Origin: Escherichia coli O157:H7
GTDB taxonomy: Bacteria; Pseudomonadota; Gammaproteobacteria; Enterobacterales; Enterobacteriaceae
Strand: one strand, 5' to 3'
Length of the DNA: 64,000 nt
Assembly: GCF_013167455.1 (NCBI RefSeq)
Contig: NZ_CP038328.1
In this document: one piece after another, positions 9,001 to 12,000 of the stretch
Layout of the letters: every line of letters starts with the position of its first letter
Position numbering within the stretch: position 1 is the stretch's first letter
Made by a program: the position numbers

Positions 9001-12000
9001 AAGAAGATTTCCAGATGCTACTCGACTTCCTGAAAGAAGCGCGTCTGGATCGCGTTGGCTGCTTTAAATACAGCCCGGTTGAAGGTGCAGACGCCAATGC
9101 CCTGCCTGACCAGGTTCCGGAAGAAGTGAAAGAAGAACGCTGGAACCGTTTCATGCAGTTGCAGCAGCAGATTTCCGCCGAGCGCCTGCAAGAGAAAGTG
9201 GGCCGTGAAATTCTGGTGATTATCGACGAAGTGGACGAAGAAGGCGCGATTGGTCGCAGCATGGCAGATGCACCGGAAATCGACGGTGCGGTTTATCTCA
9301 ATGGTGAAACCAACGTTAAGCCGGGTGATATCCTGCGTGTGAAAGTCGAGCACGCCGATGAGTACGATTTGTGGGGTAGCCGGGTTTAATTAATCTAAAG
9401 GCAGATCTAACAAGGATATTGTTCTTCGATCTGCCTCTACTACCCTTCCCGATGTCCTACCCTTACGCACAAAATCCCCTGACGCATAAATCGAGAAAAA
9501 TGAATCGTACTCGAGGCAACTCTCACTTTTTCACACCAAATTAAAGTTTTGATCGCAATTACTTGAAATAAGCGTAATGGTTACTATAGTAAACATTACC
9601 ACAAGGATGGATGTATGGGTGTGTATAAGGCAAGGCGATTCAGCCAAAGCACGAAAAAACTTGGTATTCACGATAAAGTTCTCATGGCTGCCGCTGAAGA
9701 AGTGATGCAAGGCATATGGGAGGCTGATTTAGGTAGCGGTGTCATCAAAAAACGGTTACCCCTCCAACAAGGAAAGAGTGGTGGAGCCAGAACAATTATC
9801 TTTTTTAAATCAGCAAATCATGTGTTTTTTTATGATGGTTGGTCCAAGAGTGGTCTAAGCAGTAAAGGAAGCAAAGAAATCGAAGATGATGAACTGGCAG
9901 CCTACAAAAAAATGGCAAATGCATTTCTGGCCTTTAGCAATAAGCAAATAGAGGATTTGATCGAAACTGGCTTCTTGATTGAGGTGAAAAATGAGCGATA
10001 AATTACAAATGATGCTGGAAGATGCAAAGGAACTGAATGCACTGGGCCTGATGTCTGATAGTGAGGTTGATGCCATTGCCGTCATGGTCAAAGCCCGTGA
10101 AGTCAGCGCCCGTATAGCCAAAGTCAAATCAATGACGGGTGAAGAGATCAAAGCCATCCGCACCCGATACGGCATGTCACAATCCGTGCTGGCACATACA
10201 ATGGGAATGTCAAAAGAAAGTGTCTCGAAATGGGAACGTAATGAAATAAAACCGAGCGGCCCGGCACTACGTATTTTGAATACATTGGCAATAAAAGGGC
10301 CGGAAGTTTTTGCAAAGTAAAATGTTTGCAAATGATTTACCACATTCATTAGTACCCCTTGATTCAGGGGTACTAACACTATTCTAATTCTACTGCCAGC
10401 TAATCTGAGCCCTGCCGTTTTTCTTACTCTTATACAGCCGCTCATCCGCCAGCATTTTCAAGCGTTCGACGGTAGTACATTCATTTGAATGCGCTACACC
10501 GATACTGGTGCTTAAATTAATGCTTCCCACCTGGAAATGAACGATTTCTTTTAGAATCGATAGTAACTCTTCCAGCGTGCCGCCAGTATAAATCACCGCA
10601 AATTCGTCACCGCCGAAGCGGTAGACTTTACCTTTATCTACCGGGATCTGTGATTTAAGGATTTTCACCACTTTCATCAACACTTCATCGCCCAGCAAAT
10701 GACCGAAGGTGTCGTTAATATTTTTGAATTTATCGACGTCAAACAGGCACAAATAACCGCCTTTTTCCGGCAGCGCTTTTAAATCTTCGTCAAAGGATTT
10801 TCTACCCATTGCTTTGGTCAGGTCGTCCAGGAACGCCGAGTTATACATACTGTAGAGTTTTTTGACATCGGCAGCCGAAAAGAAAAGCCCGCCATCCAGT
10901 ACGCGTTCAAAATGGTTATTAATAATGGCTTCTTTCTCCACAATACCACGATTAATCACTCTGCGTACCAGATAGAGGCAACTGGCACCCGATATCACTG
11001 CCACCAATGCGGCAAAGAAAATAATCAATGTACAGACCCGCAAATAAACATCTTTTTTATACGCAAATACGTACAATCCGGTCGGCAAATAGGCGAAGTG
11101 CTCCATCGCTTCCGAAACGGTGAAGATGGCGTTTTTAGCATTATATTCATCACCGGTCACCGGTTTACCGTTCTTAAACAGAGAGAACATCAGGTTCTCG
11201 CTGTCCATCGCCAGCGATTTTGACAGTAAAGAAAAACGCTCCAGACCAAGCAAAAATATCAGACTACGATTGTGAGTTACCGGATAGAGGTAATAGACGA
11301 AGGTTTTACCGTCAAAAGAGATAAACCCTGTATTTTTGACATGTCGATACTTCACAACCTGCATAATATCTGCACAATAATTTTTCTCGAACTCCTTTAC
11401 CTGAATACATTCGTCACTGGAAATCAGATAAGGACCGACATCGTACAAATAAGAGGGTGAAACCGAGTCGGCGTAAGCTGTGCGTAAGCCAACCAACAGC
11501 TGTTCCTCCGTGGGATTTAGCGTGTTGATAAGATCAATTGCCACGCTACGCCGATATTCAGCAATATTTGCCACCGCAAAAGCAGTATCAATAACGGACT
11601 GTTTCAGGCTATACACCCGTTCCTTTACCATTTGAGTGTAGATCCCGCAGGCAACTGCTGAAATCATGATAAAAATCAGCAGACTGACTGTAAGTACGAA
11701 CTTATTGATTCTGGACATACGTAAACTACTCTTTTACTAATTTTCCACTTTTATCCCAGGCGGAGAATGGCATGGGTTTCTGATACAGATACCCCTGAGC
11801 CTGAACACATCCTAATTTGATTAATTCGCGCGCAACGTCTTCGCTCTCTACGCCTTCCGCAATCACCGGGATCCGGTTATAGCGTGCCAGGTCGAAAATA
11901 ATGCGCACAATTTTTCCCGCAGTACCGAAAATATCGCCGGTAAATTGCGAGTCCACCTTTATGCTGTCTGGATTAATTTCATAAAAACGTTTCAGGTTTG

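Follow-up and report, generated by a model that had tools for sequence, protein, structure and literature searches.

Type II toxin-antitoxin (TA) operons that are present in some chromosomes and missing from others have previously been described between core genes, and several of these provide a comparison for the locus considered here. As represented in PMC3184786 and PMC7167474, which cite a 2009 study, ccdO157 is a chromosomal type II TA operon in the short intergenic region between folA and apaH; it occurs in O157:H7 but not in K-12, no mobility genes accompany it, its site carries a REP sequence in the alternative allele, and there are strains in which the gene for its toxin, the gyrase poison CcdB, is defective. 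The mazEF (relA-mazG) and yafNO (dinB-yafP) operons are likewise present or absent between conserved core genes and lie inside co-directional operons (PMC7167474). A further point of comparison is HigB2/HigA2 of Vibrio cholerae (PDB 5JAA, 8A0X), in which the toxin gene comes first, the toxin has the RelE/ParE fold, the antitoxin combines an N-terminal neutralising segment with a C-terminal helix-turn-helix (HTH) domain, the promoter carries a palindromic operator, and the operon sits in the superintegron with an attC site.

The window analysed here, a stretch of 64,000 nucleotides from Escherichia coli O157:H7 (contig NZ_CP038328.1), holds a TA cassette between rimO and dgcI that resembles ccdO157, as that operon is cited, in being a chromosomal type II operon lodged in a short spacer between core genes, in being present in O157:H7 and absent from K-12 with no mobility genes, in having a palindromic alternative allele, in this case a GC-rich hairpin, and in the existence of strains with decaying toxin genes. 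It departs from the same accounts of ccdO157 in its toxin, which is of the PF06296 RelE/HigB2-like kind rather than a gyrase poison, in its alternative hairpin, which is single-copy where the REP is dispersed, and in showing purifying selection in phylogroups D, E and F alongside sporadic decay. Furthermore the flanking genes are convergent, unlike those of ccdO157, and the cassette must therefore bring 3'-end hairpins on both sides; the convergent flanks and the replacement of a common hairpin also distinguish it from mazEF and yafNO. With HigB2/HigA2 it shares the gene order, the predicted toxin fold, the antitoxin architecture and the palindromic operator, yet the identity of the toxin to HigB2 is only 14-16% with a TM-score of about 0.5, and the cassette does not lie in a superintegron with an attC site. 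By itself the locus is an unremarkable instance of a chromosomal TA presence/absence polymorphism between core genes, like that of ccdO157 at folA-apaH, and its value is as a clean example, with exact breakpoints at two stop codons and a near-perfect two-allele split over 5426 genomes, in which purifying selection and recurrent toxin-first decay are found side by side. No literature on the cassette came up under its protein accession, gene names or Sakai/EDL933 locus tags; the tag ECs0915 is that of rimO.

The gene for the 30S ribosomal protein S12 methylthiotransferase, rimO, runs on the plus strand from 8064 to 9389 (ORF list; Pfam Radical_SAM, TRAM_2 and UPF0004; RefSeq annotation of the identical O157 record), and its stop codon (9387-9389) is the left limit of the interval. 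On the minus strand dgcI (10390-11718; GAPES2 and GGDEF domains), as delimited by the ORF list, Pfam, RefSeq annotation and the comparison of alleles, ends in a stop codon at 10390-10392 that forms the right breakpoint. The first-pass annotation had described an interval of roughly 1 kb that holds only the cassette, and it is indeed 1000 bp long (9390-10389) with only two real genes, toxin and antitoxin, in the ORF list and Pfam. It had likewise seen neither an integrase nor an IS fragment, and no direct repeats in the flanks, and here the ORF list and the repeat search agree with it. Neither in the interval nor next to it is there an integrase ORF, an IS fragment or a repeat of the attachment type, so that these marks of a genomic island, prophage or ICE are missing, and no direct or inverted repeat links both ends of the segment. 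Its remark that the mechanism of acquisition is unclear is in keeping with the TA literature, in which how such cassettes first integrate is likewise still open (PMC7167474). The AT-rich spacer of the left flank (9437-9558) has a detectable homologue only in cassette-bearing E. coli and no DNA match among 135 fetched loci, and the left flank as a whole (164 bp) is single-copy in each of 1136 genomes and occurs only with the cassette. At the protein level nothing of the neighbouring HEAT and SMI1 genes was recognised in the flanks, the pdeI-gsiD spacer has no TA remnant, and an Rfam scan of 9300-10500 at E <= 1 gave no RNA family. The TA segment is part of a larger low-GC block between rimO and gsiD (9395-14251), the GC content being 42% for the segment, 43.6% for dgcI and 41.6% for pdeI, compared with 52.6% for both rimO and gsiD.

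The toxin gene (9615-10001, plus strand) encodes 128 residues assigned to PF06296 of the RelE family (Pfam E 6.8e-33, residues 1-124 of 128). A sequence search of the PDB gave no match to the toxin and a fold search was therefore needed; the AlphaFold model (pLDDT 84.5) has HigB2 8a0x_D as its best PDB match (E 8.4e-4), followed by YafQ, RelE and ParE, and the toxin is thus modelled as a small protein with the RelE/ParE fold, closest to V. cholerae HigB2. The antitoxin gene (9991-10320, plus strand; 109 residues, HTH_3, Pfam E 1.9e-9) overlaps the toxin ORF by 11 nt, and its product is extended at the N-terminus and has an XRE-type HTH at the C-terminus, an architecture like that of HigA2, to which it has a sequence match in the PDB (5jaa_A, E 5.7e-4). 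The two genes are kept together in six contexts, and the antitoxin protein (WP_001280945.1) is identical in O157, IAI39, 042 and EFF60. Ahead of the operon lies a sigma-70-like promoter (TTGAAA, 16 nt, TATAGT; 9563-9590, plus strand; 10 of 12 matches), and six homologous cassettes retain its -10 region and the TTG of its -35 box. The -10 box is covered by a 26-bp operator-like palindrome, GTAATGGTTACTATAGTAAACATTAC (9574-9599; inverted repeat I3, 93% complementary), whose core TTACTATAGTAA is invariant in the window and in the homologous loci L135, L108, L121, L124 and L127, and this palindrome is a putative autoregulation site for the HTH antitoxin. By sequence and fold the cassette belongs with the type II TA operons of the RelE/ParE superfamily and is HigBA2-like. 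The predicted activity is an inhibition of growth by the toxin through ribosome-dependent mRNA cleavage, neutralised by the antitoxin, for which purifying selection and the decay variants that drop the toxin and keep the antitoxin provide indirect support.

Alignment of the interval with cassette-less genomes, which the first-pass annotation had proposed, yields exact breakpoints and no target-site duplication. The short allele is a 46-bp spacer in K-12, CFT073 and EC958, and its sequence, TTAAT-tcaggccgggcaaaatcatttgtccggcctgcgaataatga-TTA, is identical in K-12-like strains, MG1655, CFT073 and EC958. Both alleles begin with TTAAT (9390-9394; compared with K-12-like strains, CFT073, EC958 and IAI39), after which the long allele has 996 bp (9395-10390) in place of 42 bp (tcaggccgggcaaaatcatttgtccggcctgcgaataatgat plus t), and this segment takes in the first base of the stop codon of dgcI, which reads TAG in the long allele and TAA in the short one. 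The left breakpoint falls after 9394, except that it is one base further on in IAI39, which has T at 9395, and the junctions of the long allele are the same in O157, IAI39 and 042; neither the comparison of alleles nor the repeat search revealed a target-site duplication or a terminal repeat at them. The interval with its cassette, which was to be regarded as backbone if it occurred in K-12-like genomes, is not found in K-12 MG1655. The idea of an insertion stands in so far as there is a variable segment that is absent from K-12 MG1655, but the change is a replacement, 996 bp having taken the place of an unrelated 42-bp hairpin spacer. These 42 bp form one strong GC-rich hairpin, with its start 7 nt past the rimO stop and its end 10 nt short of the dgcI stop. 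Alignments of its core with the two ends of the long allele are no better than those of shuffled sequence, and an insertion of the cassette into the loop of this hairpin was therefore rejected. The hairpin was also rejected as a dispersed REP, being single-copy in a position where MG1655 has no REP annotation.

The flanks were matched in 5425 of 5426 complete E. coli genomes; the short allele is found in 4287 genomes, one copy in each, and the cassette in 1136-1138 (~21%), always at the same site with the same junctions and as one copy in nearly all carriers (median 1, highest 2). It occurs in phylogroups D, E and F, represented by 042, O157 and IAI39, which we take to be members of these groups in that order. 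Pairwise identity across D, E and F is 98.5-99.0% for the cassette, 98.9-99.3% for rimO and 97.1-98.3% for dgcI, and in a dgcI tree that sets (E, D, A) apart from (F, B2) there are carriers on both sides. An acquisition within the O157 lineage is contradicted by this distribution of one allele over three phylogroups and by a divergence that matches that of the flanks; judged from its sequence, the cassette is an old polymorphism and not a recent O157 insertion. Changes in the cassette across phylogroups are ten synonymous and two non-synonymous, of which the toxin gene has five and two and the antitoxin gene five and none, a pattern that indicates purifying selection in the D, E and F lineages. 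Decay is nevertheless to be found alongside it: a 9-bp direct repeat pair, AAGAGTGGT (9774-9782 and 9846-9854, plus strand; repeat family D11), lies within the toxin gene, where an in-frame deletion of 72 bp (9774-9845) is seen in L132 and L134, on two different haplotype backgrounds, and a second variant has lost the toxin to an IS1 deletion. In the decay variants found the toxin is removed and the antitoxin kept. The BS-01 variant (H80) was considered as a degraded intermediate and rejected as assembly noise with homopolymer runs. Plasmids and phages were both rejected as vehicles, the nearest plasmid toxins having at most 58% amino acid identity and coming mostly from Morganellaceae, and no phage match exceeding 36%; the E. 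coli "plasmid" matches are mislabelled chromosomes of 4.9 Mb.

The cassette is bordered by two hairpins, which had been taken as insertion boundaries. Hairpin L (aggcagatc/gatctgcct; 9399-9436, plus strand) is exactly as first described, with a 9-bp outer stem (9399-9407 and 9428-9436) and a 20-nt loop, and within this loop there is an inner 5-bp helix (9409-9413 and 9419-9423). It starts 9 nt after the rimO stop, has an MFE of -16.2 kcal/mol (z -3.83 on the plus and -3.82 on the minus strand; none of 200 dinucleotide shuffles folds as well), and its stem is invariant in O157, 042 and IAI39. Hairpin R (10349-10376; inverted repeat I8, 100% complementary) is likewise present, its perfect stem being of 11 bp (10349-10359 and 10366-10376) and not the 10 bp originally given, with a 6-nt loop and an MFE of -16.8 kcal/mol (z -4.80 and -4.99 on the plus and minus strands; 0 of 200 shuffles as good); it lies 28 nt past the antitoxin stop and 13 nt past the dgcI stop on the opposite strand, and varies only by a loop SNP at 10365. 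Their role as boundaries does not survive comparison with other genera. What the cassette has in common with its relatives in Kluyvera, in a Superficieibacter-like genome and in another Escherichia is confined to 9547/9559-10321, a unit that begins at the promoter and extends to the stop codon of the antitoxin gene (9559-10321 in L108, ~9547 to the contig end in L135, 9564/9581-10320 in Kluyvera), so that both hairpins lie outside the conserved TA unit, and each homologous context has its own unrelated hairpin after the antitoxin in the same functional position. The comparison thus separates a conserved TA unit from locally supplied hairpins, and edge hairpins of accessory segments between convergent genes need not be recombination scars.

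Of the 53 Enterobacteriaceae species in which only a short gap separates rimO from gsiD, 50 have a strong hairpin of unrelated sequence after rimO (median start 8 nt after the stop, median stem 11 bp, median z -4.6). Given such a hairpin, near-universal in Enterobacteriaceae ~8 nt after the rimO stop irrespective of what lies beyond it, L and R are best read as 3'-end structures. By analogy, hairpin L would be the 3'-end hairpin of the rimO transcript, of the terminator or stabiliser type, and hairpin R would serve the convergent antitoxin and dgcI transcripts together. Neither was called by a consensus terminator scan, as no U-tract follows them, and they therefore lack the stem-loop plus U-tract that defines an intrinsic (Rho-independent) terminator; on direct reading the short-allele hairpin has no U-tract either. 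This weakens the case for a canonical terminator and not that for a 3'-end structure, and it is position and analogy that suggest the terminator or stabiliser role.

We consider it probable, with fairly good confidence, that the locus has two old alleles, the long one carrying the TA operon, and that its hairpins are 3'-end structures and not recombination sites. The segment would have entered the spacer once, early in or before the radiation of E. coli, through an illegitimate event that replaced the resident hairpin, whose job the two new hairpins would have taken over; L may close or protect the transcript of rimO and R those of the convergent antitoxin and dgcI genes, and together they may shield the TA operon from read-through. 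Thereafter vertical inheritance would have maintained it, or homologous recombination in the flanking rimO and dgcI would have exchanged it with the short allele, with piecemeal loss continuing through deletions and IS1 insertions. That no mobility machinery accompanies the segment would reflect its inability to move by itself. The flanking SNPs linked to the cassette are dgcI positions 1 and, except for one site in EC958, 73-79; this linkage is weak, so recombinational exchange is suggested rather than directly demonstrated.

Subterminal hairpins at both ends, with no terminal inverted repeats and no target-site duplication, are hallmarks of IS200/IS605-type elements, and a segment with hairpins near both ends, neither inverted repeats nor a duplication, and the fixed short sequence TTAAT adjoining it on the left could therefore be a non-autonomous single-strand transposon of this (PATE) type, or one related to REP/RAYT, mobilised in trans by a Y1 HUH transposase. 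TA loci elsewhere are also known to alternate with REP sequences (PMC7167474), and L048 has REP-like repeats at the site where L108 has the TA operon. It would seem very improbable that this is what happened here, for across 1136 genomes there is one site, at which the segment and its left flank are found strictly as a single copy, and copy number largely refutes such an origin; nor is there a tnpA or RAYT gene nearby, the short-allele hairpin shows neither the copies nor the MG1655 annotation expected of a REP, and the homologous TA units of four other contexts are without hairpins L and R. The left-end and right-end hairpins of one TnpA are expected to be alike, but L and R are unrelated in sequence, in stem length (9 and 11 bp) and in loop (20 and 6 nt). 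More generally, of the marks by which an IS, MITE or composite transposon is recognised, the segment has no terminal repeats and no target-site duplication, and in nearly all carriers no extra copy or site.

TA cassettes of the general RelE/HigB kind are frequent in Vibrio superintegrons, and hairpin R stands directly 3' of the coding region as an attC does, which raises the possibility of an integron-type gene cassette from a chromosomal integron, with hairpin R as a degenerate attC. This is hardly credible. Read directly, hairpin R (TTAGTACCCCT...AGGGGTACTAA) does not have the RYYYAAC and GTTRRRY cores on either strand, the nearest forms, TACTAAC and GTTAGTA, failing at one position each; its stem is perfect and has no extrahelical bases of the sort typical of attC, no intI or attI lies nearby, and homologues have unrelated hairpins.

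It could also be argued that the cassette is ancestral to the rimO-gsiD neighbourhood, having descended vertically from an Escherichia/Kluyvera/Superficieibacter-like ancestor, so that the window represents backbone and the short allele of K-12 type is derived by loss. Homologous TA operons are indeed found in the same neighbourhood, convergent with gsiD, in a Kluyvera georgiana-like genome, K. sichuanensis and Enterobacteriaceae UBA5654, and their nucleotide identity to E. coli drops in the same order as that of the host backbone (82% against 90.6% for rimO in L135, 74.6% against 79-83% in L108, and 68-71% against 77-78.5% in Kluyvera). On the E. coli dgcI tree, moreover, two losses are more parsimonious than three gains, which favours a cassette in the E. 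coli ancestor that was replaced in A and B2. Set against this, in most Enterobacteriaceae, among them Citrobacter, Salmonella, Enterobacter, Klebsiella and Kluyvera genomosp. 1, rimO and gsiD are directly convergent with no TA operon, which would require many independent losses, and a 42-bp hairpin spacer cannot arise by deletion. Short-type alleles are also present in divergent Escherichia, namely SCPM-O-B-8794 (rimO 93% identical) and E. whittamii, which favours the short allele as the older. There is no homology in the flanks beyond the promoter-to-stop unit, and in L135, an Escherichia sp. contig, the TA operon lies on the other side of a dgcI remnant, a position unlike that in E. coli, so that the unit has been relocated or acquired at least twice within the region and pure vertical descent does not explain the arrangement. 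We therefore regard wholly vertical ancestry as unlikely.

More doubtful still is a reading that extends to the whole neighbourhood. In most Enterobacteriaceae rimO and gsiD are directly convergent, with a gap of 39-130 bp in 53/75 species (those with gsiD found downstream of rimO), and this terminator gap may be an integration hotspot in which cargo repeatedly takes the place of palindromic terminator or REP-like hairpins, the TA unit of ~760 bp (promoter, operator, toxin and antitoxin) having landed or been relocated several times, in four genera and in two positions within Escherichia. If true, the pattern would point to hairpin- or palindrome-directed capture of TA modules, for example by break repair at long palindromes, and would bear on how chromosomal TA systems integrate, a question still unanswered (PMC7167474) for which the hotspot could be a natural test bed. 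The cargo found in the rimO-gsiD gap includes pdeI-dgcI, a HEAT-repeat gene, a SUKH/SMI1 gene, a chemoreceptor and transporters.

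The interval between rimO, which ends at 9389, and the minus-strand gene dgcI, which ends at 10390, is exactly 1000 bp (9390-10389), and the window from 9000 to 10800 is 100% identical to O157 genomes. It has only two credible genes, a toxin gene (9615-10001) encoding a 128 aa RelE-family protein (PF06296, E 6.8e-33) and an antitoxin gene (9991-10320) encoding a 109 aa HTH_3 protein, which overlap by 11 nt. From its sequence features this cassette is a predicted type II toxin-antitoxin (TA) operon of the RelE/ParE superfamily, and among solved structures the nearest are V. cholerae HigB2 for the toxin (by fold) and HigA2 for the antitoxin (by sequence). 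The class is a known one; a literature search turned up no paper that deals with this cassette, and the nearest known situation is that of ccdO157 in the folA-apaH spacer.

Two stem-loops accompany the operon. Hairpin L, 3' of the rimO stop, pairs 9399-9407 with 9428-9436 around a 20-nt loop containing an inner 5-bp helix (-16.2 kcal/mol, z -3.8), and hairpin R, between the antitoxin and dgcI stops, has a perfect 11-bp stem (10349-10376; -16.8 kcal/mol, z -4.8); for either, 0 of 200 dinucleotide shuffles folded equally well. The ORF list of the interval contains no integrase or IS fragment and a repeat search found nothing joining its two ends. The first-pass annotation had described a ~1-kb interval holding only the cassette, with two hairpins and without integrase, IS fragment or flanking direct repeat, and as observation this was accurate; its interpretation, that the hairpins lie at the boundaries of an insertion, is supported only in part.

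Alignment to strains lacking the cassette, as that annotation had proposed, gives exact breakpoints. The identical interval is not found in K-12, as MG1655 has, like other K-12-like strains, CFT073 and EC958, a short allele with a 46-bp spacer, TTAATTCAGGCCGGGCAAAATCATTTGTCCGGCCTGCGAATAATGA, that forms a 13-bp GC-rich hairpin (-23.5 kcal/mol, z -6.0). All that the alleles have in common is the TTAAT that follows the rimO stop and, at the other end, the sequence beyond the first base of the dgcI stop codon (TAG in the long allele, TAA in the short one); thus the long allele has 996 bp (9395-10390) in place of 42 bp. Comparison of the alleles revealed no target-site duplication at the breakpoints, and the short-allele core aligned to each end of the long allele no better than shuffled sequence. 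The difference is one of allele replacement and not the simple insertion that had been assumed.

Homology to TA operons elsewhere begins at ~9547-9581 (the -35 box) and ends at 10319-10321 (the antitoxin stop) in all comparisons, and all six cassettes carry the same operator core, TTACTATAGTAA. The nearest toxins outside E. coli are at most 80% identical; homologous operons adjoin gsiD in Kluyvera georgiana-like and K. sichuanensis genomes, and in Enterobacteriaceae UBA5654 the operon has gsiD on one side and rimO with a SUKH/SMI1 gene on the other. Both hairpins, together with a 164-bp left flank and a 69-bp right flank, fall outside this conserved unit and have no homologue beyond cassette-bearing E. 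coli among 135 loci compared, and in each other context a separate, unrelated hairpin occupies the space from antitoxin stop to convergent gene, so hairpins L and R are not insertion boundaries. An IS200/IS605- or PATE-type element can also be rejected, as the two hairpins do not resemble each other and the segment is present as one copy at one site, as can an integron cassette, since attC core motifs and intI are absent.

A different role for the hairpins is suggested by comparison across Enterobacteriaceae. Of the 75 species with gsiD located 3' of rimO, 53 have the two genes in direct convergence across a gap of 39-130 bp, and 50 of the 53 gaps contain a strong hairpin (median z -4.6, median stem 11 bp) that starts a median of 8 nt past the rimO stop, the sequences being unrelated across species. 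Hairpin L starts 9 nt past the rimO stop, and hairpin R lies 13 nt from the dgcI stop compared with 10 nt for the short-allele hairpin; neither L nor R is followed by a U-tract, and a consensus terminator scan calls neither. The simplest reading would be that two 3'-end hairpins in the long allele stand in for the single bidirectional one of the short allele, and the pair would keep transcription of rimO, of dgcI and of the TA operon apart.

The flanks were matched in 5425 of 5426 complete E. coli genomes, with the short allele in 4287 (at a single place in nearly all) and the cassette in 1136-1138. The cassette segment has one place in nearly all carriers (median 1, highest 2), its left flank occurs once and once only in 1136 genomes, and in all carriers examined the cassette sits between rimO and dgcI. 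K-12, CFT073 and EC958 have the short allele and O157, IAI39 and 042 the cassette with the same junctions; we take K-12 to be phylogroup A, CFT073 and EC958 B2, O157 E, IAI39 F and 042 D. Identity among the three cassette lineages is 98.5-99.0%, between that of rimO (98.9-99.3%) and dgcI (97.1-98.3%), and as the dgcI tree separates O157, 042 and K-12 from IAI39, CFT073 and EC958, carriers occur on both sides of its deepest split. Substitutions among the three cassettes are 5 synonymous and 2 non-synonymous in the toxin and 5 and 0 in the antitoxin, and the stems of both hairpins do not vary among compared cassettes. Taken together, the flank-like divergence, the spread of carriers and the substitution pattern show that the cassette is old, roughly of the age of the phylogroup radiation, and functionally maintained; its divergence and spread over these lineages rule out a recent acquisition by O157.

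No vehicle for the cassette is apparent, as no plasmid copy above 58% aa identity was found and the sole phage match is 36% identical. The identical junctions would imply that the D, E and F lineage cassettes derive from one founding event, and the almost complete division into two alleles, with normal E. coli sequence as far as both stop codons, fits vertical descent together with homologous recombination that exchanges the alleles by way of rimO and dgcI. Short-type alleles are present in the divergent Escherichia SCPM-O-B-8794 and E. whittamii, which would make the short state the older, while within E. coli parsimony on the dgcI tree favours ancestral presence of the cassette. That it is simply ancient backbone lost in K-12 seems unlikely, as loss cannot on its own account for the short-allele hairpin or for the many Enterobacteriaceae without the TA operon.

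The block from 9395 to 14251 (TA, dgcI and pdeI) is ~42% GC compared with 52.6% in the bordering rimO and gsiD, and given the direct convergence of these two genes in most Enterobacteriaceae the whole 4.9 kb has the look of an old island of low GC, of which the TA operon forms one sub-module. The cargo of the rimO-gsiD gap varies among genera, and at loci L021, L039, L064, L081, L088 and L103, with gaps of 2.3-4.2 kb, it is unrelated. By ORF appearance it is there a methyl-accepting chemoreceptor-like gene in Pantoea and Enterobacter cancerogenus, an MFS transporter and dehydrogenase in Phytobacter and Kosakonia, and assorted small genes, a GNAT-like acetyltransferase among them, in Citrobacter spp. 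E. albertii NBRC 107761 (L006) has a third allele of the spacer in the first 771 bp past rimO, a gene for a 237-aa HEAT-repeat protein that overlaps the dgcI stop with its 3' end, and in Escherichia sp. MOD1-EC7003 (L106) this gene is degraded, and what remains of dgcI, 50-60 bp, is joined to gsiD. A 1684 bp Escherichia sp. contig (L135, Logan SRR26188678) runs from the rimO end through an intact HEAT gene and a 50-60 bp dgcI 3' remnant into a TA operon 82% identical to that of the window, stopping within the antitoxin gene; the operon is on the opposite side of dgcI relative to E. coli, and the contig, which may be a chimeric assembly, would show two positions for the TA unit within this region in Escherichia.

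Superficieibacter sp. 1612_C1 (L048) and a relative (L108) have rimO, the SUKH/SMI1 gene and gsiD in common, and at 1040-1420 downstream of rimO the place taken by the TA operon in the latter is filled by three REP-like repeats (GCCGGGTGGCGCTGCGCTTACCCGGCCTAC...) in the former. This is like ccdO157 at folA-apaH, for which alternation of TA or REP is reported (PMC7167474, PMC3184786); how TA systems integrate has been described as unelucidated (PMC7167474).

Variants of the cassette are also found. The cassette of E. coli BS-01 (L119, NZ_CP172816.1, 1297-2165) is full of homopolymer runs and small deletions, with an internal stop in pdeI, and was rejected as a biological variant as it looks like assembly or base-calling error despite the 'complete' genome. 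Some E. coli (L132 and L134; 3001-3315) have a 104-aa toxin through in-frame loss of 72 bp (9774-9845), exactly between a pair of 9-bp direct repeats, AAGAGTGGT (window 9774-9854). The deletion is on two haplotypes, differing from O157 at 12 and 2 sites, and therefore arose more than once or moved by recombination; it looks like toxin-first decay. In E. coli EFF60 (L136, NZ_CP086678.1, 2496-3785) an IS1A lies immediately past hairpin L; it has taken out the promoter and almost the entire toxin gene and left the antitoxin intact. In STK78-E (L003, 3391-4512) rimO is followed by an IS1, and the deletion of dgcI-pdeI extends to gsiD.
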